A stretch of DNA of 32,000 bases from Hallella mizrahii. Lineage in GTDB: Bacteria > Bacteroidota > Bacteroidia > Bacteroidales > Bacteroidaceae. This document shows, one piece after another, positions 14,784 through 27,821 of this stretch (its first letter is position 1; each line of letters opens with the position of its first letter). The DNA is taken from assembly GCF_009695775.1 (NCBI RefSeq), contig NZ_VUNG01000009.1, positions 5,181-37,180 of the forward strand, given 5' to 3'. The notes beneath the pieces were generated by a model. That model did no database searches. It was not told where the DNA came from and saw nothing but the letters and a program-made list of their open reading frames with translations. Position numbers and translations under genes: made by a program.

Positions 14784-16127
14784 TCACAGTATTCCCAGCT
14801 GATGCAGGAATACGGCAAGGATGCACACGGGCGAGACGAAGCGGATGATAAAGAGCCAGACAGCATAGAAGCGGCCCCGCACCGTGCCCCAATTGGTAAA
14901 CTCGTCACGCACAATGCGCTTCGGCACCACCCAGCCAATGAGGATACAGGTGAAGAAAGAACCTAAAGGCAAAAGAATATTGGAGGTCAGATAATCGCAG
15001 CACTCCAAGAAGGTCTTTCCGAAAAGACTGATGTCTGCCGCACCACAAGACAGAGAGCAGAGCACTCCGATGGTCACACACACCAACGTCTCCATGATGG
15101 CTCCCTTCTTGCGCGAGATATGCAACTCCTCATAAAACATTGCTGTGCCGATCTCGTGCATGGAAATGGTCGAAGTCAGTGCCGCCAAGGCCAGAAGCGC
15201 ATAGAACAGCACGCTGATGATATAACCGAGCGCGGGGCTGAACGCTTGCTGAAAGACATTGGGCAAGGTGATGAAGATGAGTGAGGGACCGCTGTCGGGA
15301 CGCACACCCACCGAGAAAGCTGCAGGGAAGATCATCAGTCCGGCCAACACAGCGATGAATGTGTCGATACCGGCAATCTGCAAGGCAGACTGTGACAGAT
15401 TGGTTTGCCGGCTGAAATAAGAGGCGTAGGTACACAGACAAGCTGTACCGAGCGACAACGAGAAAAAGCTCTGTCCCAAGGCATCAAGGAGGACATTGCT
15501 GTCGATCTTACTGAAGTCGGGCTTGAACAAGAAAGCGATACCCTTACCGGCACCGGGCAACAGACAGGAGGCCACCACAATGATAAGCAACAATATAAAT
15601 AAGGTGGGCATGAGCATATTACTAAACTTCTCAATACCCTTCCTCACGCCGCGGATGACAACCAAATGGGTCAGCACGATGAAAGCGACGGTCCACAGCA
15701 ATGGCTTCACGGGGTCGGAAGAGAAGTTTTTGAAATAGGCTGCCACATAAGCGGGGTCGCCATGGATGCCACCCAGCAAGGAGACCACAAGATATTGCAG
15801 ACACCATCCTGCCACCACGGCATAGAAACCTAAGATGATCATAGACGTGACGGCTCCCATATAACCGATCAGCGACCACCATCGCCCTCCCAACTGGTAA
15901 TAAGCACGGGCTGCGTTGGAGGCTCCATGCCGCCCAACGATAAACTCAGCGACCATTCCGGGGATGCCGAGAATAAGTATACTCACCAGATAGACAAGCA
16001 AGAAGGCGGCACCGCCGTCTTGTCCTGTCAGATAAGGGAAGCGCCAGATGTTGCCAAGTCCCACGGCTGATCCAGCCGTAGCAAGAATGACGCCTATCTT
16101 AGTTCCAAAGCTACCACGTTCAGACAT
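14784..16127 (-). CDS. Sodium-dependent transporter, SNF/NSS family (paralog 1)
   Basis: Start taken at MSERGSFGTKIGVILATAGSAVGLGNIWRFPY (ATG 16127); the ORF-track extension to 16154 is unlikely. It has the NSS signature GLGNIWRFPY and about 11-12 TM segments. Confidence 0.9.
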   Translation of the reverse strand: MSERGSFGTKIGVILATAGSAVGLGNIWRFPYLTGQDGGAAFLLVYLVSILILGIPGMVAEFIVGRHGASNAARAYYQLGGRWWSLIGYMGAVTSMIILGFYAVVAGWCLQYLVVSLLGGIHGDPAYVAAYFKNFSSDPVKPLLWTVAFIVLTHLVVIRGVRKGIEKFSNMLMPTLFILLLIIVVASCLLPGAGKGIAFLFKPDFSKIDSNVLLDALGQSFFSLSLGTACLCTYASYFSRQTNLSQSALQIAGIDTFIAVLAGLMIFPAAFSVGVRPDSGPSLIFITLPNVFQQAFSPALGYIISVLFYALLALAALTSTISMHEIGTAMFYEELHISRKKGAIMETLVCVTIGVLCSLSCGAADISLFGKTFLECCDYLTSNILLPLGSFFTCILIGWVVPKRIVRDEFTNWGTVRGRFYAVWLFIIRFVSPVCILAVFLHQLGIL

Positions 16128-16361
16128 AAGCAATGAAGAATGATGAATGATCAATTATAAGTGATGAATTGCAAAGGAGGACGGTACACAGCACCGTCGT
16201 ACAGAACCAAGCTAACCACAAAGGGTGCTCATTCCCTCTCTCCTCACTCTTGAAGCATGCTACGCACCTCTCCTTGGGAAAGAGGACAGGGGGGAGGCCA
16301 TCGGGGAGCAGGGGCATTGCCATAGGGGAACAGGAGCAAGGCCATCGGAGAGCAAGCCCTT

Positions 16362-17720
16362 CTATATCACATTGAACTGATGCAGGAAAATGCCCAAGAT
16401 AGCCAGCGGACAGACGAAACGCACCAAGAAAAGGAAGACACCGAAGAAGCGACCCCGCAACGTGCCCCAGTTGGTAAACTCATCCTTGACAACCGTCTTA
16501 GGAATAAACCATCCCAGGAAGATGCAGGTCAGGAAGCCACCGACCGGCAGGAAGATCTGTCCCGTGACGAAGTCAAACACATCAAACAGTGTCTTGTCGC
16601 CCACATACAGCCAGTTGACAGCCCCCAATGACAAAGAACAGAAAGCACCGATGATGGTAGTGGCGACTGTCACAATCGTTGCTCCCGTCTTGCGCGACAG
16701 GTGCAGCTCTTCACTGAAAAACGACGTGCTCACTTCGTGCAAAGAGATCAGAGAGGTCAACGCTGCCAGACTGAGCAGAGAATAGAACATCAGTGACACG
16801 ATCCAACCGATGACGGGCATACCCGAGAAAGCCTCATTGAAGACATTGGGCAAGGTGATGAACACCAGCGAAGGACCACTGCCTGGGTTTACGCCCACCG
16901 AGAACGCAGCAGGAAAGATCACCAGTCCGGCAAGGATAGCCACGAAGGTATCGACCAATGCCACCTGAATGGCAGAGTTGGCGAGATTGGTCTGTCGGGT
17001 GTAATAGGAGGCATAGGTACAGATACAGCCCATGGCGATGCTCAGCGAATAGAAGCTTTGTCCCAGCGCATTGAGGAAAGTCTGATGCGTCACCTTAGAG
17101 AAGTCGGGCTTCAGCAGGAAGCTGATGCCTTTCTCTGCGCCGGGGAGCAGACAAGCGGCCACCACGATGACAAGCAGCAAAACGAAGAGTGTGGGCATCA
17201 ACAGCTTCGAAGCTTTCTCTATTCCTCCGCGGATGCCGTGGATAATCACGAAGTGGGTGACCCACAGGATGACGACCGTCCAGAAGATCGGCCGCACCGG
17301 GCTTGTGGCAAACGTGTCGAAATAGGTTTTCACCGCCGTGGGATCGCCATGCAGTTCACCCATGACCGACGCATAGATATATTGCAGGCACCATCCCGAG
17401 ACGACGGCATAGTAGCCCGTGATCAGGAATCCCGTGAGCACACCCAGCAGTCCCACATACTTCCACGCCTTTCCTCCGGACATCTTGGAATAGGCGCGAA
17501 AGGTGTTTGACGCACCGTGGCGGCCAATGATAAATTCCGATATCATACACGGAATACCCAACAGCAACACACATCCTATATATATAAGGATAAAGGCAGC
17601 ACCACCGTTCTGCCCTGTCATATAGGGGAAACGCCACACATTTCCCAAGCCTACGGCACCACCGGCCGTGGCCAATATCATGCCTAACTTACTTCCGAAG
17701 CTTGCTCTTTCTTCTGCCAT
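16362..17720 (-). CDS. Sodium-dependent transporter, SNF/NSS family (paralog 2)
   Basis: Start taken at MAEERASFGSKLGMILATAGGAVGLGNVWRFPY (ATG 17720). Collinear and highly similar to paralog 1 along its full length. Confidence 0.9.
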   Translation of the reverse strand: MAEERASFGSKLGMILATAGGAVGLGNVWRFPYMTGQNGGAAFILIYIGCVLLLGIPCMISEFIIGRHGASNTFRAYSKMSGGKAWKYVGLLGVLTGFLITGYYAVVSGWCLQYIYASVMGELHGDPTAVKTYFDTFATSPVRPIFWTVVILWVTHFVIIHGIRGGIEKASKLLMPTLFVLLLVIVVAACLLPGAEKGISFLLKPDFSKVTHQTFLNALGQSFYSLSIAMGCICTYASYYTRQTNLANSAIQVALVDTFVAILAGLVIFPAAFSVGVNPGSGPSLVFITLPNVFNEAFSGMPVIGWIVSLMFYSLLSLAALTSLISLHEVSTSFFSEELHLSRKTGATIVTVATTIIGAFCSLSLGAVNWLYVGDKTLFDVFDFVTGQIFLPVGGFLTCIFLGWFIPKTVVKDEFTNWGTLRGRFFGVFLFLVRFVCPLAILGIFLHQFNVI

Positions 17721-20210: not shown

Positions 20211-22019
20211 CTAACATTCATACATTTTGTCGATGACTGCCGCATAGTTTTTGTAGATGACAGGGCGGCGCATCTTCAGCGTATTGGTCAATTCTCCCGA
20301 TTCCATCGAGAAATGGTGAGGCAGGAGCGTGAAGCGCTTGATCTTCTCATAGTTGGCCAAGCCTTGTTGCAAGGTCTCTATGCGCTCCATCATCATGTCG
20401 TGGATTTCCTTATTTTCGCAGAGGTCTTCGCGACGTTCATACTTGATGTTGTGCGCACGCGCATAGTCCTCCAACATGCGGAACTCCGGCACGATCAGCG
20501 CGGAAACGAACTTTCGCTGGTCGGCGATGACTGCTACCTGGTCGATGAACTTATCCACGAGCAGCAGAGACTCGACCATCTGCGGTGCGATATACTTACC
20601 ATTGCTGGTCTTGAAGAGATCCTTGATGCGCTCCTTGAGGAAGAGCTCTCCGTCTTTGAGATAGCCGGCGTCACCGGTATGGAAGAAGCCCTGCTCATCG
20701 AAAGCCTGCTTGTTGAGCTCGTCGCGATGGTAGTATCCCTTGGTGATTGTCGGGCCTTTGAGCAGAATCTCACTGTTCTCGCCGATTTTCACCTCTATGC
20801 CCTGTATGGGCCGGCCCACAGAGCCAATGGTGATCTTCTCACCGATATGGTCGCAAGAAACAGTGGCCAAGCTTTCCGTCAAACCGTAGCCCACGATCAT
20901 ATTGATGCCGATGGAATGGATGAAATTCTCCACTTCGGGCGACACGTACGCGCCTGCCGTTGGGAAGATATTGGGATGTTCCAGTCCCATCACCTTGCGC
21001 ACGAGGCTGAGCACCGACTTGTCGAGCACCTTATATTCCAAAGCCAGATGCAAGGGCGGACGCTTGCCGTTGCAGATATAGTCCACATTATATTTCTTAC
21101 CGACGCTCAGGGCATGATAGAAAAGTTTCTTCTGCCATGCGCTCGAGCGGTCCATCTTGTCCTTGACTGCCTGATAGACCTTTTCCCAAAAGCGCGGCAC
21201 ACTCGACATAGACGTAGGATGGGTCTCGCGCATGCTTTCCTGAATCTCCTTGGGATAGGTGTTGACGATGAGCTGTGCACCCTCGGTCAAGGCCAGATAA
21301 GCCCATCCGCGCTCAAAGATATGGGTGAAGGGCAGGAAATCGATGACGCGATCGTTCTCCGTGACCGGCACACAGGCGTCGTTGGCTTTCAAGGCTGCCG
21401 CATACTGCCCGTAGCTGAGCATCACACCTTTGCTGTCGCCCGTGGTGCCACTGGTGTAGAGAATATTGCAGAGATCATCGTCGTTGGCCTGCTTGTAGAG
21501 TGCTTCCACTTCGGTCTGGCGGGGCAGATCCTCGCCGAGCTTCAGGAAGTCTTCGAAGTAAAGGGCGTTGGGGTCATGCGAACTGATACGGACACTGTCG
21601 TCGTAGATGATGATACGCTCCAGCGAAGGACACAGGGCAAACACGCGGTGTGCCTTGTTGTATTGCTCCTGCTCACCGACGAAGAGAAAACGCACCTGAG
21701 CATCGTTGATGATAAACTGTATCTGCTGTTCCGAGCTGGTGGCATAGATAGGGATAGAGCATGCCCGGATGCCGTACGCGCCAAAGTCGGTGTAGAGATA
21801 CTGCACACAGTTTTGCGAGAACACAGCAATATTTTCCTGGGGCTTGATGCTCAAGTTCAGCATGGCATTGCTCACTTGCTTGACACGCAAAGAGAACTGT
21901 TTCCAGGAAACAGTCTTCCATTTCAAGCTTCCAAACGTACGGAACGTCAGGGCACCCCGCGACCCGTACTTCTTTGCCTGCTCATGTATCAGCACAGACA
22001 GATGACTTCTATTCTGCAT
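20211..22019 (-). CDS. Long-chain-fatty-acid--CoA ligase (AMP-dependent synthetase/ligase)
   Basis: AMP-binding signature LYTSGTTGDSKGVML, plus GYGLTE and FHTGDAGY...ERIKDLFK blocks. Start taken at ATG 22019 (MQNRSHLSV...), because the ORF-track start at 22046 is a TTG lying inside the -7 promoter box. Confidence 0.9.
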   Translation of the reverse strand: MQNRSHLSVLIHEQAKKYGSRGALTFRTFGSLKWKTVSWKQFSLRVKQVSNAMLNLSIKPQENIAVFSQNCVQYLYTDFGAYGIRACSIPIYATSSEQQIQFIINDAQVRFLFVGEQEQYNKAHRVFALCPSLERIIIYDDSVRISSHDPNALYFEDFLKLGEDLPRQTEVEALYKQANDDDLCNILYTSGTTGDSKGVMLSYGQYAAALKANDACVPVTENDRVIDFLPFTHIFERGWAYLALTEGAQLIVNTYPKEIQESMRETHPTSMSSVPRFWEKVYQAVKDKMDRSSAWQKKLFYHALSVGKKYNVDYICNGKRPPLHLALEYKVLDKSVLSLVRKVMGLEHPNIFPTAGAYVSPEVENFIHSIGINMIVGYGLTESLATVSCDHIGEKITIGSVGRPIQGIEVKIGENSEILLKGPTITKGYYHRDELNKQAFDEQGFFHTGDAGYLKDGELFLKERIKDLFKTSNGKYIAPQMVESLLLVDKFIDQVAVIADQRKFVSALIVPEFRMLEDYARAHNIKYERREDLCENKEIHDMMMERIETLQQGLANYEKIKRFTLLPHHFSMESGELTNTLKMRRPVIYKNYAAVIDKMYEC

Positions 22020-22043
22020 AGTACTACGTATTTTTTGTTGTTG

Positions 22044-22051
22044 CAAAGATA
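22044..22051 (-). promoter_or_regulatory. Candidate -7 box TATCTTTG for the acyl-CoA synthetase gene
   Basis: The plus strand reads caaagata, which is TAtcTTTG on the minus strand, 25 nt upstream of the ATG at 22019. Confidence 0.45.
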
Positions 22052-22093
22052 AAGAATTCCTATTAAAAAGTGAAATGTTTAGGCAGTTTTTAT

Positions 22094-22129: not shown

Positions 22130-23215
22130 ATGAGACACCAAGACTATATCAACGACGCCGTGGAGCTGCTCTCCCGCCTCATCGCCACGCCGTCGGTCAG
22201 CCGCAACGAGAAAGAGGCCGCAGACGTGATGCAACATCAGATGAGCACCTACGGGCTCGCCACGCACCGCGAGGCCAACAACGTCTGGGCGATATGCCCG
22301 GACTATGACAGTGCCAAGCCTACGATTCTGCTCAACGCACATACCGATACGGTGAAACCGGCCATTTCGTGGGTTCGCGACCCTTTCAAGCCTACACACG
22401 AGGGCGATCTTCTCTACGGCTTAGGAAGCAATGACTGTGGCGGCGGTTTGGTCACGCTATTGCAGGTGTTCAGATATATGACGCTGCGCACGCAGCCTTA
22501 CAACCTCGTCTACTTGGCTTCCGCCGAGGAAGAGGTGTCGGGAAAAGACGGTATCAGCCGTGTCTTGCCGCTGCTGCCCCATATCGACGTGGCCATCGTG
22601 GGTGAGCCGACGGGCATGCAACCCGCCATCGCGGAGAAAGGACTGATGGTGCTCGATGTCGTCAGCCACGGCAAGAGTGGTCATGCGGCACGCAACGAGG
22701 GCATCAACGCGATCTATGAGGCACTCGACGACATGCGATGGATTCGGGATTTTCGGTTCGAGAAGGTGAGCCCTTTCCTCGGTCCCACAAAGATGACGCT
22801 CACGGTGGTCCATGCGGGCACGCAGCACAACGTCATCCCCGACGAATGCCGGATGCTCGTCGACGTGCGCACCAACGAATACTACACCAATGAGGAGGTT
22901 TACGACATCGTGCGCTCGCATGTCAAGAGTGATGTCCACGCACATTCGTTCCGCTTGCATTCTTCGCACATCGACCCGGAACATCCGCTCGTCAAGCGTT
23001 GTGTGTCACTTGGCCTGCAGCCTTTCGGCTCGCCGACACTCAGTGATCAGGCACTGATGCCCTTCCCCTCGCTGAAACTCGGCCCCGGCGAGTCGTCGCG
23101 CTCCCACAGTGCCGATGAATTCATCAAGATCAGCGAAGTCGACCATGCCTTCACGACCTACCTGCAAGTGTTGGAAGGACTGAAGGAGAGGATACCGAGG
23201 TGGGAGGGTAAATAA
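22130..23215 (+). CDS. M20-family metallohydrolase (ArgE/DapE-like deacylase)
   Basis: 361 aa. Metal-ligand blocks ILLNAHTDTVKP, GSNDCGGG, ASAEEEVSGKDG, GHAARNEG. Size and motifs match acetylornithine deacetylase / succinyl-DAP desuccinylase relatives. Confidence 0.85.
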   Translation: MRHQDYINDAVELLSRLIATPSVSRNEKEAADVMQHQMSTYGLATHREANNVWAICPDYDSAKPTILLNAHTDTVKPAISWVRDPFKPTHEGDLLYGLGSNDCGGGLVTLLQVFRYMTLRTQPYNLVYLASAEEEVSGKDGISRVLPLLPHIDVAIVGEPTGMQPAIAEKGLMVLDVVSHGKSGHAARNEGINAIYEALDDMRWIRDFRFEKVSPFLGPTKMTLTVVHAGTQHNVIPDECRMLVDVRTNEYYTNEEVYDIVRSHVKSDVHAHSFRLHSSHIDPEHPLVKRCVSLGLQPFGSPTLSDQALMPFPSLKLGPGESSRSHSADEFIKISEVDHAFTTYLQVLEGLKERIPRWEGK

Positions 23216-23274
23216 AGCGTGCGCGGTCAATCATCTCCGCATCGTTTCACAACAATCAACACATAGAGAAGTCT

Positions 23275-23718
23275 ATGAGTTACACACAACTGATGTACCA
23301 CATCGTCATCGGTACAAGAAGTCACAGACCTGTTATTGACCAAAACTACGAACGGGAGCTATACAGTTATATACTTTCGTTCACAAAAAACAAGAACGGC
23401 CACCTATATAGAGTAGGTGGCATGCCTAATCACGTCCATCTCTTAGTGGGTCTACCTTCCACTTTGACAGTTGCAGATTTCGTTCGCATGCTGAAGATCT
23501 CTACGAATAACTTCATGAAGGAACATCAACCTGAGTTCCCGATGTTCGAAGGATGGCGCAGCGAATACTTTGCTGCCACATGTTCACTTCGTGAGAAAGA
23601 TAAGATCATCGAATATATCAAGAACCAGAAAACGCATCATGCGAAGGTCTGCTTCAAGGATGAGCTAAAGCAGCTACTGGAAGAGTACGGCATCTCGTAC
23701 AACGAAGATTACCTATAA
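23275..23718 (+). mobile_element. Y1 HUH tyrosine transposase of the IS200/IS605 TnpA superfamily, RAYT-like (no TnpB partner in the window)
   Basis: 147 aa. N-terminal YHIV block (LMYHIVIGTRSHRPVI), HUH motif PNHVHLLV (H53-V-H55), and the catalytic Tyr helix IIEYIKNQKTHH (Y114). The ORF is intact. It stands alone as a single gene and is followed 46 nt later by a palindrome array. Confidence 0.85.
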
Positions 23719-23764
23719 CTTCCACGCGAGACATTTTCAAGGTCATGGCCCTGCGACTCATCTC

Positions 23765-24311
23765 TACACCGAGTCGCTCACTCGTAAGGATTTCCGCTAC
23801 GCTCCAGTCCTTACTCGTTCGACGACTCGGTTCTTTTCATCGTGTGACCTTTTCAAGATCATTATACACACAACAACCAAGTATGTTGCTACCAAGTTCC
23901 TTGCGGGAGTACTAAAAGAGCACTGGGCAACTATCAAACCAAAAGCAAAGTGCTTTGATGTGACTCATGTCCCTGAAAGGGACACACTCTTAATGACCCC
24001 AAGTCGTCGAGCAAGTAAGGGCCGAAGCGAAGCGGAGGTCCTTACTTGCTCGACGACTTGGGGTAGAGTCGGTGGCAATGCAATGACCTCGGAGAGGTCT
24101 CACGTGGACGTATTACAAAGCCTTGATAACAAGTTACTTCACCCGTCCACGTGAGTCCTCTTCGAGGACATCTTCCCGCACACGAACTACCCCAGGTCGC
24201 TCACTTTTGTGATGCTTCGCCATCACAAAAGCTCGACGACCTGGGGTCAATCATAGTGTGTCCCTTTCAGGGACATTATACGCTGAGAGCTTAATCACCC
24301 ACTCTTATGAA
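23765..24311. repeat. Array unit 1
   Basis: See the array entry. Contains H1 (23768-23831), a 135-nt less-structured spacer, the dyad module (23967-24276) and a 35-nt tail. Confidence 0.9.
23967..24276. repeat. 310-bp dyad-symmetric hairpin module of unit 1, bounded by perfect 22-nt inverted repeats
   Basis: IR-L atgtccctgaaagggacacact (23967-23988) is the exact reverse complement of IR-R agtgtgtccctttcagggacat (24255-24276). Each 22-mer is itself a hairpin (gtccct/agggac). Internal hairpins are H2 23997-24063 (24-bp stem), H3 24085-24099, H4 24099-24155 (12-bp stem), H5 24155-24169 and H6 24190-24246. Confidence 0.9.
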
Positions 24312-24858
24312 TACACCGAGTCGCTCACTCGTAAGGATTTCCACTACGCTCCAGTCTTTACTCGTTCGACGACTCGGTGCTTTTCATCGTGTGACCTTTT
24401 CAAGATCATTATACACACAACAACCAAGTATGTTGCTACCAAATTACTTGCGGGACTACTAAAAGAGCACTGGGCAACTATCAAACCAAAAGCAAAGTGC
24501 TTTGATGTGACTCATGTCCCTGAAAGGGACACACTCTTAATGACCCCAAGTCGCCGAGCAAGTAAGGGCCGAAGCGAAGCGGAGGTCCTTACTTGCTCGA
24601 CGACTTGGGGTAGAGTCGGTGGCAATGCAATGACCTCGGAGAGGTCTCACGTGGACGTATTACAAAGCCTTGATAACAAGTTACTTCACCCGTCCACGTG
24701 AGTCCTCTTCGAGGACATCTTCCCGCACACGAACTACCCCAGGTCGCTCACTTTTGTGATGCTTCGCCATCACAAAAGCTCGACGACCTGGGGTCAATCA
24801 TAGTGTGTCCCTTTCAGGGACATTATACGCTGAGGGTTTAATCACCCTCTCTTATGAA
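24312..24858. repeat. Array unit 2
   Basis: Dyad module at 24514-24823. The inverted 22-mers were verified at 24514-24535 and 24802-24823. Confidence 0.9.
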
Positions 24859-25404
24859 TACACCGAGTCGCTCACTCGTAAGGATTTCCGCTACGCTCCA
24901 GTCCTTGCTCGTTCGACGACTCGGTTCTTTTCATCGTGTGACCTTTTCAAGATCATTATACACACAACAACCAAGTATGTTGCTACCAAGTTCCTTGCGG
25001 GACTACTAAAAGAGCACTGGGCAACTATCAAACCAAAAGCAAAGTGCTTTGATGTGACTCATGTCCCTGAAAGGGACACACTCTTAATGACCCCAAGTCG
25101 TCGAGCAAGTAAGGGCCGAAGCGAAGCGGAGGTCCTTACTTGCAAGCGACTTGGGGTAGAGTCGGTGGCGAAGCAATGACCTCGGAGAGGTCTCACGTGG
25201 ACGTATTACAAAGCCTTGATAACAAATCACTTCACGCGTCCACGTGAGTCCTCTTCGAGGACATCTTCCCGCACACGAACTACCCCAGGTCGCCCGCTTT
25301 TGTGATGCTTCGCCATCACAAAAGCTCGACGACCTGGGGTCAATCATAGTGTGTCCCTTTCAGGGACATTATACGCTGAGAGCTTAATCACCCACTCTTA
25401 TGAA
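24859..25404. repeat. Array unit 3 (1-nt shorter; right arm of hairpin H2 degraded)
   Basis: Dyad module at 25061-25369. The inverted 22-mers were verified at 25061-25082 and 25348-25369. It reads cttacttgcaagcgacttgggg where units 1 and 2 read cttacttgctcgacgacttgggg. Confidence 0.9.
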
Positions 25405-25535
25405 GTAACAACCATTTTTTCCGACAAAAACACGTCCGCAAGAAGTTGCAATCTAGAGAAGCGGAAAACGGAGGAAGAAGGATAAAACTACTATTTCATC
25501 GATTTTTCTCGGTCAAAAGCCTAAGATGATGCTAA

Positions 25536-25593
25536 GAAAACGGTACTTTGATGGAAAATTCTCTAGAGAATTTTCCATCAAAGTACCGTTTTC
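25536..25593. repeat. Perfect 58-bp palindrome (29-nt arms, zero spacer)
   Basis: gaaaacggtactttgatggaaaattctct|agagaattttccatcaaagtaccgttttc, checked base by base. A further direct copy of caaagtacc lies at 25601-25609, 22 nt after the copy at 25579-25587. Confidence 0.95.
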
Positions 25594-26018
25594 ACACGGT
25601 CAAAGTACCTTTTTGATCACTAAAAACGGGCGTTTTGGCGAAGTAAACAGCTAATTTTGACAAGTAAAAAAGTGGATTATCGAAGTAAAATCACATAAAT
25701 CGCTAATATACAAGCAATTATGAAAAAATCTCCATTTTGGGCTTCTTTTCGGCCAACACCCATGTTGCTTCTGAAAATCGTCGAAAAATTGGCCGAAAAA
25801 TGTCAGTTTACACGACAAAATAAAACAAGGGGGACAAGAATACAAAAATAGGCAGATGCAGTAACGAACGCTCCTTAAAGGATGCTCCATTACCACATCT
25901 GCCTATTCTGCGACAATATGTGTTTACTATGTTACTCTGTCTTATGACAAGGCGTCGCTCTGTATGCCTACTATGCAATCTGTCTTATAACGAGCCGAGA
26001 CATTGACTTTTTACTCTG

Positions 26019-27821
26019 TCATCTTCCGAGCCATGCCTCGGGATTGAGCTTTGTTCTCTCCTTGCGCAGTTGGAACTGCAGGATATGATCAGGGCCGACA
26101 GTGCCGAGGATCTGCCGTGTGCGTACCTTCTGTCCACGGCTGACGCTCACCGATCTGAGGTTGCAGTAGACCGAGATATAGGCACCGTGGCGCACCATCA
26201 CCACCATACTGCCACCATAACCGATGACAGCGCTGACCTCACCATCGTAAACACAACGTGCCTGCGCGCCGGGGCCGCCCATGATATTGATGCCCTTGTT
26301 GTCGAGCGTCACGCCTTTCAATCCGTCAACATTGTACTGTCCGAAGTGGCTCACGATGCGATAGTTGCCCGTGATCGGCATTGGCAGTCGTCCGCGGTTG
26401 GCTTCGAAGCCATTGTTCATCATGCGGTCGACGGTAGAGAATTGCTGCGCCTCCTGGTTCTGCTGTTGCACGTGCTTGATCTCCTGCTGAGCGCGTTGTG
26501 CATCGACCCGCTGTTTCAGCTCAGCAGCCCGTCGCATAGACTCCGCCTCACGGGCAGCCTGCTCCGCAGCCGCCTTCCGAGCCTCAGCCTCACGCTCCGC
26601 TGCCTCGCGTGCTGCCAACTCCCGTGCCGCAGCCTGCTGAGCCGCACGCTCACTGGCCAACGCCTTTGCGGCGGCTTCCTGACGGGCCTTGGCCGCGGCC
26701 GCCTCACGGGCACGCTGGGCAGCAGCCTCTGCCAAGGCAGCCTGACGGGCTTGTTCCTTGAGCTGAGCCTCACGCTGGCGTGCCTCAGCAATACGGCGAG
26801 CGTTCTCGCGGGCAGCGGCCTCCGCGGCCGCCTTCTTCTGTGCTAGAAGAGCAGCACGCTGTTTGGCGGCGGCCTCCGCGGCGGCTTTGCGTTTCGCCTC
26901 GGCGGCAGCACGGGCGCGCACCTTCTGCACTTCTATCTCCACGAGCTGGTCGATCTTGGCATTGAGTGCGGCGTCTTTCTTATGCTGTTCAGCGATGATG
27001 GTCTGTATCGTCTTTTGCTGTTGCTGCAAGCTCGCCACCACCTGCTGCTGCTCAGCCTTGTTGCCTTCGAGTTTATGCTTCTCCTGCTGTCCCTTATATA
27101 ATAAGGTGTTTTTCTGTCCTTTGACGTGCTGTAGCTGACGATGCTTGTCATTGACCTGTCCCTGCTTGGCTCTGACAGCCTCGCCTTGCGCCCTCTGGTA
27201 CTGAGCATACTCACGTACGAAGCGCAGGCGTCGGTACATCTGATAGAAGTTCTTCGCTGAGAAAATAAACATCAGCCGGTCCTGCACCGAGCGGTGGCGC
27301 GCCATATAGCGCATCGATTTGATGTATTTCTGCTGCCGGTCGCGCAATTGCTGCTGCAAGGTCTTCAGCTGCGAGTTGAGGATGCCAATGTTTCCCTCGA
27401 TATGATGGATGTCTTTTTGTATACCTTCGATATTGTGCTGTCGCTGATCGATTTCGCCATTGATAACCATCAGGTGCTGCAGCCGCTCAGCGACATCAGC
27501 CTTGTTTTTCTTCAAAGCGGCTTCCTGCTCCCTTATCTTCTTCTGTATGGCCGCCCGCTGGTTTTGCAGTCCACGGATAGAAGCATTGGTGTAGACCTTG
27601 GCATTGCTGGATTTTGTCGCAGACCGAGCGTTTTTTCGTCCATTTCTCCGGCTGTTGCTGCTCTTTGCCTTTGTGTGTGTAGAAGCAGTTGTCGCCGTCT
27701 TCCGACGCGACATCTGCTCTGTGCGGCTGTTTTTCCGCTCCGTTGCAGTCTTGCGTCGGTTTTGCGCGTTCAGAGTGAGCACGAGGCTCACGGTAATCAT
27801 TAAAGTGACTATTCGTCTCAT
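26019..27821 (-). CDS. EnvC-like murein hydrolase activator: signal peptide, coiled coil, long Ala/Glu/Arg/Gln-rich region, and a degenerate LytM (M23) domain
   Basis: 600 aa. Coiled-coil heptads (IEGIQKDIHHIEGNIGILNSQLKTLQQQL). The C-terminal M23 fold is recognisable, but the metal-ligand positions are substituted: LDNKGINI replaces HxGxD, VYCNL replaces YxHL, and ILQFQL replaces HLHFE. Confidence 0.85.
   Translation of the reverse strand: MRRIVTLMITVSLVLTLNAQNRRKTATERKNSRTEQMSRRKTATTASTHTKAKSSNSRRNGRKNARSATKSSNAKVYTNASIRGLQNQRAAIQKKIREQEAALKKNKADVAERLQHLMVINGEIDQRQHNIEGIQKDIHHIEGNIGILNSQLKTLQQQLRDRQQKYIKSMRYMARHRSVQDRLMFIFSAKNFYQMYRRLRFVREYAQYQRAQGEAVRAKQGQVNDKHRQLQHVKGQKNTLLYKGQQEKHKLEGNKAEQQQVVASLQQQQKTIQTIIAEQHKKDAALNAKIDQLVEIEVQKVRARAAAEAKRKAAAEAAAKQRAALLAQKKAAAEAAARENARRIAEARQREAQLKEQARQAALAEAAAQRAREAAAAKARQEAAAKALASERAAQQAAARELAAREAAEREAEARKAAAEQAAREAESMRRAAELKQRVDAQRAQQEIKHVQQQNQEAQQFSTVDRMMNNGFEANRGRLPMPITGNYRIVSHFGQYNVDGLKGVTLDNKGINIMGGPGAQARCVYDGEVSAVIGYGGSMVVMVRHGAYISVYCNLRSVSVSRGQKVRTRQILGTVGPDHILQFQLRKERTKLNPEAWLGR

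Follow-up and report, generated by a model that had tools for sequence, protein, structure and literature searches.

Y1 transposases accompanied by cognate palindromic repeats, which occur as singles, dimers and clusters, are described as REPtrons and TIRtrons in sections of PMC3733652, PMC3116915 and PMC6006769, and the general kind of system discussed here, namely repetitive extragenic palindromes (REPs, with BIMEs and REPINs) and their REP-associated tyrosine transposases (RAYTs) together with the TIRtrons, is already known. TIRtrons, as set out in a section of Di Nocera et al. 2013 (PMC3733652), are Y1 genes that stand between long terminal inverted repeats (TIRs) and not between classical REPs; such TIRs are also moderately abundant elsewhere as singles, dimers and groups, some are self-complementary and some carry GGGGWSAS. 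The TnpA_Y1 proteins of subclass 1.2 were summarised by Quentin, Siguier, Chandler & Fichant 2018 (PMC6006769) as belonging to Bacteroidetes and Cyanobacteria, as low in copy number, as 'REP: no' and as being without insertion sequence (IS) properties. Y1 HuH transposases and the RAYTs, their domesticated relatives, shape bacterial genomes via hairpin repeats, and the step from a selfish IS200 to a host-kept REP is poorly documented. Here we describe a 310-nt palindromic module that stands three times in tandem beside a subclass-1.2 tnpA gene, in a 32,000-nt stretch of Hallella mizrahii DNA (contig NZ_VUNG01000009.1, positions 5,181 to 37,180), which we call the window and whose coordinates are used throughout unless a locus is named. 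We think that this module is probably a dimer, lacking tnpA, of the ends of a Prevotella Y1-transposase element, in other words a REPIN, MITE (miniature inverted-repeat transposable element) or 'TIR dimer' analogue for an IS200-like TnpA, in which each ~150-nt half-module (HM) would be a cis-acting end. The module consists of two inverted HMs of the sort that normally bracket tnpA, and so a gene-less derivative of that element is what it most likely represents.

The gene itself, which an earlier reading of the window made from its letters alone (the sequence-only reading) had missed, is the following.

23275-23718, plus strand: tnpA, encoding a 147-aa Y1 (HuH) tyrosine transposase, IS200-like (Pfam Y1_Tnp PF01797, E 9e-23)

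Its product reaches 65.2 bits on the NCBIfam model transpos_IS200 (NF033573, cutoff 55) and only 21.7 bits on REP_Tyr_transpos (NF047646, cutoff 80), and its best genuine matches in the PDB are to the ISDra2 TnpA (2FYX/2XM3). Read from the translation, its motifs are HVH (as NHVH) and YIKNQKTHH, the latter being the Y---Q--HH signature of Y1 subclass 1.2, and the gene is intact, with both HuH and tyrosine motifs, in every lineage examined. The array of modules starts 46 bp past the stop codon.

Profile searches identify the true repeat unit as a ~150-nt, three-hairpin HM, of which each half of the module is one copy. In an HM, a terminal hairpin of 7 bp comes first, and then the single strand CACAC..TGAATGA, which is conserved. 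Next stands a long hairpin whose 10-bp base (CCCCAGGTCG/CGACCTGGGG) is invariant; beyond the base come an asymmetric internal loop that is conserved (5' TCGAG, 3' GAG), a variable distal stem of ~11 bp and a loop of GCGAAGC type, and the 3' foot of the hairpin carries GTAG. Then follow a small hairpin, GACCTC-GRA-GAGGTC, and TCACGTGGAC. These three hairpins form in identical order when single HMs are folded, whether taken from the window, another Prevotella clade or a tnpA lineage of 50% identity. The first module of the array is built as follows, with the hairpin labels H2 to H6 of the sequence-only reading retained.

23967-24125, plus strand: L-type half-module (nhmmer E 1.5e-48), folding alone as three hairpins, z -10.6; terminal hairpin 23968-23984, long hairpin 23996-24064 (H2, 28-nt arms, 96%), small hairpin 24085-24099 (H3), TCACGTGGAC 24100-24109
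24127-24276, minus strand: R-type half-module (nhmmer E 1.3e-43), folding alone as three hairpins, z -9.3; terminal hairpin 24259-24275, long hairpin 24189-24247 (H6, internal loop kept), small hairpin 24155-24169 (H5)
24099-24110 with 24144-24155: stem of H4, enclosing a 33-nt loop

The 'global dyad symmetry' that the sequence-only reading saw in 23967-24276 is, from the hairpins of each HM and the profile matches, an HM(+) set head-to-head with an HM(-). The palindrome is real, an imperfect one of 310 nt with exact 22-nt inverted ends, and it is simply two inverted copies of one three-hairpin unit. The outer 22-mers, IR-L (23967-23988) and IR-R (24255-24276), are indeed exact reverse complements of each other, the seven hairpins lie where they had been placed, complementarity of the ends reaches 46-nt arms at 91%, and the module aligns with its own reverse complement over its whole length at ~70%. 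Folding of both strands with DNA and RNA parameters bears out the proposal that the module can adopt either a row of local hairpins or one long hairpin: the minimum free energy comes to -111 kcal/mol for DNA and -195 to -199 for RNA whichever strand is folded, all z values lie between -17 and -19 with 0 shuffles folding equally well, and in the fold of lowest energy a single stem with 28-nt arms takes in H3, H4 and H5 while IR-L pairs with IR-R. That same reading compared the ends with IS or MITE inverted repeats, and the same sequences do flank a transposase gene, inverted, in relatives of this locus. It also took IR-L and IR-R as the limits of the element, and here it fell short, since conserved sequence extends past both. 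The perfect H2 stem that it described is present in units 1 and 2 of the array and is derived, with TCGA in place of the family's internal loop; the loop (GC-GAG/AAG-CGAC) is retained in unit 3 and in other strains. This conversion of loop to perfect stem (GAG/AAG to TCGA), which is multi-base and templated, can be read by comparing 23996-24064 with 25090-25157 in the window, and it arose independently at L040 219-363 and L007 4386-4544 (handles of this form denote loci in other assemblies); to judge by the sequences, its presence in several copies is a textbook signature of quasi-palindrome correction.

The array and its parts are laid out below.

23765-25404: tandem array of exactly three units of 547, 547 and 546 bp, 96-99% identical (repeat search and unit alignment)
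23765-24311, 24312-24858 and 24859-25404: array units 1, 2 and 3
23705-23861, minus strand: HM0 of unit 1, a third, degenerate HM that runs over the stop codon of tnpA (model positions 2-155; nhmmer E 2e-16 by the seed model and 9e-30 by the family model)
24311-24408, minus strand: truncated HM0 of unit 2 (nhmmer; model positions 2-99), cut off at GTA|G, where its long hairpin has its foot
24849-24955, minus strand: truncated HM0 of unit 3 (nhmmer)
23897-23966 (approximate), plus strand: flank A, the left extension of the module, including a small hairpin, CAAAGTGCTTTG
24277-24311, plus strand: flank B, the right extension of the module, TATACGCTGAGAGCTTAATCACCCACTCTTATGAA, whose outer end is the tandem-repeat junction (read directly)
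24514-24823: module copy 2, with HM(+) 24514-24672 and HM(-) 24674-24823
25061-25369: module copy 3, with HM(+) 25061-25218 and HM(-) 25220-25369, followed by its flank B at 25370-25404; its H2 retains the ancestral internal loop (GC-AAG-CGAC)

Each unit reads, in order, as truncated HM0 (97 nt), spacer, flank A, 310-nt module and flank B; the array went unreported by TRF because its period exceeds 500. All six occurrences of the 21-mer ATGTCCCTGAAAGGGACACAC in the window fall inside the array (expected 0.00). Across independent loci, conservation reaches ~65-70 nt left of IR-L, as flank A (common to L030/L035, L032, L021 and partly L020), and 35-40 nt right of IR-R, as flank B (common to L020, L013, L021, L041, L029 and L030), and the two flanks are unlike each other. 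The degenerate HM0, found by profile search on the minus strand in the 'spacer' of every 547-bp unit, had also escaped the sequence-only reading. The copy in unit 1 folds weakly alone (z -0.98), and its placement, with the inner end toward tnpA, is that of the right-hand HM in elements of full length; on the plus strand its long hairpin (23769-23833) leads into TTCTTTTC and looks like a predicted terminator of tnpA. Open reading frames (ORFs) within the array, such as 23960-24154 and 24258-24701, were dismissed as coding because conservation follows base pairs and the copies stand in both orientations. A scan for tRNA and tmRNA found none, and sigma-70 and terminator scans were uninformative on the modules.

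The connection with an element comes from relatives, which amount to 57 loci gathered by exact-protein look-ups and two scans of sequence collections. In human-gut Prevotella carrying tnpA homologues of 73-77% identity, HMs lie on both sides of the gene, inverted, with their inner ends toward it.

L018 69-965, L022 961-1789, L006 4739-5617 and L005/L007/L008: tnpA bracketed by HMs

The two ends of these tnpA-bearing elements are inverted copies of one ~150-nt HM, 81-92% complementary to each other. When the ~860-nt element of L022 is aligned with the gene-less module of L007, both HMs align and the central ~540 nt, which span tnpA, are essentially unaligned; judged from this alignment, the module is in all likelihood a deletion derivative of the tnpA-bearing element. 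Beside some complete HMs, just outside them, stand tandem partial HM termini of 31-35 nt (for example TTCGGTGTAGCGCTGCCCCCGGAGCCAGAAC four times), and it looks as if the HM terminus has been repeatedly duplicated.

L005 4398-4552, L007 4050-4204, L006 4652-4761 and 5609-5789: partial HM-terminus tandems

HMs are also dispersed away from the gene. The 24-nt core GWCCTCGRAGAGGWCTCACGTGGA was found at 25 loci, 24 of them in four Prevotella metagenome-assembled genomes (MAGs), with ~19 loci on 15 contigs of UMGS580 and 1-3 loci in each of three other Prevotella MAGs, counts that must be read knowing that MAGs are fragmented and that contigs break at repeats. The window-type terminus matches 24 metagenome loci. 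Solo copies, inverted dimers, 'tail-to-tail' pairs and clusters all occur, almost always outside long ORFs, and HMs lie both upstream and downstream of tnpA and neighbouring genes, in both orientations to them. In UMGS580 two tnpA genes were seen, 75.5% identical, and a near-identical multi-copy IS population was not, bearing in mind that MAG assemblies can collapse or lose repeats. Carriage by a phage or plasmid was considered and rejected because the 547-bp unit has no blastn match among plasmids and phages and three pattern scans of viral contigs returned nothing. UMGS580 also has another palindromic repeat family, ~600 nt long and unrelated to the HMs, which occupies the interval between two inverted HMs (L016 2320-2913) and elsewhere abuts the inner end of solo HMs (L012, L017, L031, L010). 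One locus with a complete module, L030 (CAVKHS010000015.1, 50% GC), is labelled Paratractidigestivibacter (Actinomycetota); in its module and immediate flanks it is nearly the same as metagenome loci L035, L040, L042 and L049, and it is probably a misbinned Prevotella contig.

More distant tnpA lineages have repeats of their own. Directly 3' of the P0008 gene (50% identity, in polysaccharide-biosynthesis loci) lies a ~230-nt palindrome of two three-hairpin halves, which includes a small hairpin, GTCCTC-TAC-GAGGAC, like H5. The P0019 gene (54% identity) lies between inverted copies of a 28-mer, beyond which 5-6 units of 54 nt follow in tandem; every unit contains two HM-like hairpins, a terminal one and, after ATGTGAATAACC, another whose loop is GCGTAGCGA. 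With the two paralogue types of UMGS580, this makes four further tnpA lineages examined, and analysis of their flanks finds cognate structured repeats in all four, unlike the published summary of the subclass; the gene is kept beside HMs across 50-97% protein divergence. The loci L058, L059 and L060 (2501-2953 and flanks) hold a 50%-identical subclass-1.2 tnpA inside polysaccharide-biosynthesis loci, where the downstream gene, a DegT-family aminotransferase, is the same in all three and the upstream genes differ, which puts tnpA at the boundary of a variable region.

Gathering homologous modules and testing them for covariation, as the sequence-only reading had proposed, yielded an alignment of 74 distinct HMs with 37 predicted base pairs, of which 22 show compensatory changes. 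In the terminal hairpin, for example, columns 4-16 are U-A in 37 sequences and A-U in 37; in the small hairpin, columns 127-139 are A-U in 55 and U-A in 19; and every pair of the distal long stem covaries. Paired cells make up 95.8%, against 33-46% in controls with partners slid by 1-3 columns, and the covariation score is 0.372 against at most 0.098, with 0 of 500 shuffles reaching the observed value. Between species it is the base of the long hairpin, its internal loop and GACCTCGGAGAGGTCTCACGTGGA that are invariant, while the distal stems covary.

The locus is old and its repeats are restless. In the syntenic loci L020 (95%/86% identity) and L013 (84-90%), tnpA and one module occupy the same place without HM0, from which it follows that the locus is long established and vertically kept while its repeat content changes; among closer relatives, the 547-bp unit is present once in L002, whose right flank is that of the window, and at least twice in L003, L048 and L052. 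A ~900-bp segment comprising tnpA and HMs is inverted between L006 and L007, whose flanks are 95-98% identical, and the L021 group has its HM pair the other way round with respect to the conserved flanks A and B. Internal truncations and junctions cluster at GTA|G, the 3' foot of the long hairpin, where four independent breaks fall: the window array junction, L056, L024 and L043, with L032 6 nt away. At the window junction (24311|24312) the outer end of flank B (...CTCTTATGAA) is joined to the foot of the HM0 long hairpin, and in L056 the same flank-B end is joined to GTA-AGAGTCGG of an L-type HM. By an informal count, ~4 of 13 internal breakpoints lie within 3 nt on a 156-position model, against roughly 0.25 expected; even allowing for post-hoc choice of the interval, this is suggestive of a candidate nick site. 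A second, small cluster lies at GTCGTC| (L034/L039, L057). As for a target, which in IS200/IS605 elements is a particular tetra- or pentanucleotide, with insertion on its 3' side and no duplication of the target, a TWAC-like sequence abuts the window-type flank B in only four loci, the conservation of outer flanks at 36 U580-type loci ends at AGCAC with no TTAC-like motif, and no direct repeat that could be a target-site duplication borders the conserved element. The contig of L004 (723-935), which encodes an identical TnpA protein and is 98.5% identical in nucleotides to the window over the shared stretch, departs from it right after GACATTTTCAA (window 23740) into unrelated, apparently coding sequence with no match anywhere else in the window. 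Either a chimeric assembly or a rearrangement where HM0 starts could account for it.

How might such a system work? By the IS200/IS605 and RAYT paradigm, an HM in single-stranded DNA, as on a lagging-strand template, would extrude its three hairpins, and the neighbouring HuH/tyrosine enzyme would recognise them, the likeliest target being the long hairpin with its invariant base and asymmetric loop. The enzyme might then nick and rejoin at or beside the GTAG at the 3' foot of that hairpin, in analogy with the hairpin feet used by IS608/ISDra2 TnpA and E. coli TnpA_REP and with the RAYT cleavage of the GTAG of REPs in vitro that is described in a section of PMC3733652. Two inverted HMs would present an identical hairpin set on either strand. 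Enzyme activity, together with recombination between inverted or direct HMs, could generate singles, dimers and clusters, could flip segments between inverted HMs and could have produced the three-fold amplification of 547 bp beside tnpA, such that the 310-nt module would be a non-autonomous inverted dimer and the array its local amplification. What the sequences themselves establish is the anatomy, the homology to tnpA-flanking sequence, the deletion relationship, dispersal, covariation, inversions, variation in copy number and recurrent breakpoints; binding and cleavage of HMs by TnpA, the single-stranded form and actual transposition are all supposed here by analogy. More broadly, and in a proposal to which we would give a little less than an even chance, the subclass-1.2 Y1 HuH proteins of Bacteroidota may be the enzymes of an unrecognised REPtron-like system, one that reads the loop of a composite 150-nt three-hairpin DNA, cuts at GTAG and gives rise to singles, inverted dimers, arrays and local inversions. 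If so, it would stand beside IS200/IS605 ends and REP/RAYT pairs as a third solution, reached independently, and it could be an evolutionary intermediate between those two.

Several observations sit awkwardly with the module as a derivative of a tnpA-bearing element. No left-hand HM lies 5' of the window tnpA, even when searched with the family model (nhmmer E up to 10); in the window lineage and its syntenic relatives HMs stand solely 3' of the gene; the 32-kb window holds no further module copies beyond the array; and the closest genome, UMGS868, has just three HM loci, far below REP abundance. The ends are long inverted repeats and not the distinct left and right ends of one strand that characterise IS200/IS605 elements. 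The tandem junctions share GTA microhomology with the native flank (GTAACAACC), so that slippage without any enzyme could explain them. No pair of filled and empty sites was recovered, an exact look-up of the neighbouring M20 peptidase having given no record, and mobility is therefore not directly shown. Among stem mismatches, G:T (36) and A:C (27) give no strand signal, and the covariation data consequently do not separate a function in DNA from one in RNA. Part of the 'covariation' could, moreover, reflect templated quasi-palindrome correction in place of selection, and templated perfecting of the long stem is visible in the first two units of the window array as well as in L040 and L007.

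Some of these same points feed an alternative in which HMs have no enzyme partner at present and are palindromic DNA of a selfish or neutral kind, left over from an extinct element and kept up and reshaped by slippage, quasi-palindrome correction and homologous recombination, with the array a strain-level unequal crossover. Copy number varying from 1 to 3 between near-identical strains, microhomology at junctions, templated perfecting of stems, a degenerate HM0 and low abundance in the closest genomes are all consistent with it; an intact tnpA, its retention beside HMs over such protein divergence, and the holding of invariant blocks between species while distal stems covary all count against it, and we consider relics unlikely. 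It is also rather unlikely that the hairpins act as RNA, whether as a structured 3' untranslated region or terminator of the tnpA transcript or as a small-RNA gene, with the dispersed copies secondary; in such roles, for which REPs and the IS200 leader are models, they might end read-through, regulate tnpA or shield mRNA from 3' exonucleases. The very stable RNA fold on both strands, the T-run that follows the long hairpin of HM0 directly past tnpA and covariation that is equally compatible with RNA speak in its favour, as does the role of REPs in stabilising or terminating transcripts (covered in a section of PMC3733652). Against it, no curated Rfam covariance model matches, in keeping with the sequence-only reading, which recognised no RNA class: at gathering thresholds the whole window gives nothing, and 23200-25700 at E up to 1 gives only miRNA-hairpin noise. 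Nor does a motif scan find a Bacteroidetes-type promoter, TAnnTTTG, in the array on either strand, G:U-compatible mismatches are not in excess on one strand, HMs stand upstream and downstream and in both orientations to tnpA and its neighbours, and the unpaired internal loop and GTAG foot look like features for recognition by protein or in DNA. Highly improbable, we think, is an invertible phase-variation switch ('inverton') flipped by a recombinase, as known from Bacteroidales. It would account for exact 22-nt inverted repeats 266 nt apart, for the flipped interior between conserved flanks in the L021 group and for the tnpA segment inverted between L006 and L007, but the interior is itself palindromic, so that flipping changes little; the array has no promoter motif inside; no recombinase or invertase was found among the neighbouring ORFs scanned against Pfam; and the same units also exist as solo halves and flank a transposase gene. 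These three rivals are less well supported than a REPtron/TIRtron-like system.

The surroundings of the locus deserve a brief description. The neighbours of tnpA are housekeeping genes, encoding M20 and M23 peptidases, a peptide-chain release factor (PCRF/RF-1 domains) and a DUF4292 protein (Pfam). The following were also recorded in the window.

25541-25596: perfect ~56-nt palindrome (GAAAACGGTACTTTGATGGAAAATTCTC / TAGAGAATTTTCCATCAAAGTACCGTTTTC), similar to a bidirectional terminator in having T-runs on both strands; also present in syntenic L013 and L020 and in non-syntenic L030 (788-843), it may be another small repeat family
26543-26829: four copies of an imperfect 29-nt direct repeat, CCGCCTCACGGGCAGCCTGCTCCGCAGCC-like, in a 62% GC part of the M23-peptidase gene, presumably a repetitive protein segment
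15240-15490 and 16827-17077: 251-nt direct repeat, 71% identity, 1587 bp apart
15000-17000: unusually strong AT skew, +0.28 to +0.30, in the region holding the 251-nt direct repeat
16295-16354: 22-nt tandem repeat
20211-22046, minus strand, and 20313-22052, plus strand: overlapping ORFs of ~600 aa; the former is the AMP-binding enzyme gene called in L001, and the latter, of 579 aa and without a Pfam match, is probably a shadow ORF

Why should any of this matter? Subclass 1.2 is common in Bacteroidota and had no known partner in DNA, and the HM offers it a candidate DNA partner with invariant blocks, covarying stems and a candidate nick site, whose anatomy makes the biochemistry directly testable with short oligonucleotides. 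There is also a practical side, in that these repeats break metagenome assemblies: three of four contigs with the exact tnpA are shorter than 2 kb, and L001, the longest at 9.5 kb, stops 76 bp past the gene. Moreover, the repeats vary in copy number between strains and mediate inversions, which is relevant to Prevotella, a major genus of gut and rumen.

It remains to place the system among its described relatives. The sequence-only reading knew of no named kind for this architecture, and precedent does exist, in the REPtron/REPIN and TIRtron descriptions found in the sections of the three sources already cited. The likeness to TIRtrons lies in a Y1 gene with long TIRs that are also found elsewhere as singles, dimers and groups. 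The terminal hairpin of the U580 type ends in GGGGTCAC, which contains GGGGWSAS, while L022 has GGGGACAC and the window type AGGGACAC; homology of these to the TIR motif is a lead only. On the other side, TIRYTs are described, in a section of PMC3733652, with RAYT-distinguishing motifs, whereas TnpA here scores as IS200-type and fails the REP-transposase model, which argues against TIRYT membership; the repeat is a 150-nt three-hairpin unit with extensive covariation; and the relevant section of PMC3733652 describes neither Bacteroidota/Prevotella examples nor tandem 547-bp arrays.

With REPtrons, REP-BIMEs and REPINs (Nunvar 2010; Bertels & Rainey 2011, PMC3116915; Ton-Hoang 2012), the locus shares a Y1 gene of single or low copy that is vertically kept at a fixed locus (L020 and L013, 84-95% nucleotide identity), inverted cognate repeats on both sides of the gene in L018, L022, L006 and L005/L007/L008, inverted doublets that form a long hairpin as REPINs do, copies in tandem arrays as in BIMEs, and GTAG at a hairpin foot. 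A REP, however, is one hairpin of 20-40 nt with a 5' GTAG in hundreds of copies, whereas the half here is ~150 nt of three hairpins with GTAG at the 3' foot of the middle one, at ~3-20 mostly extragenic loci per genome as seen in fragmented MAGs, and the protein is not a class-2 TnpA_REP (YIKNQKTHH, not Y..xNP). The ties to IS200/IS605 are a TnpA of IS200 type by Pfam, NCBIfam and PDB similarity to ISDra2 TnpA, with HUH and tyrosine motifs, a small element (~880 bp) whose one gene is tnpA and whose two ends carry hairpins, and, as in PATEs and MITEs, derivatives that lack tnpA and keep both ends; in the window lineage, by contrast, tnpA sits at a conserved locus without a left end. Like a MITE, the module is small and non-coding, has inverted repeats (22 nt exact, 46 nt at 91%) and equals the full element minus tnpA, but its flanks A and B differ and target-site duplication is lacking. 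The protein fits subclass 1.2, with which it shares the Y---Q--HH motif, length (147 versus ~148 aa), occurrence in Bacteroidetes and low copy with divergent paralogues, and from which it differs in a HuH motif of NHVH in place of DH[IV]H and in the elaborate cognate hairpin repeats beside the gene in four of four further lineages. What appears to be new, then, is the pairing of a subclass-1.2 TnpA with a cognate repeat, the composite three-hairpin unit of 150 nt with its conserved loop, and the distribution of both in Prevotella.

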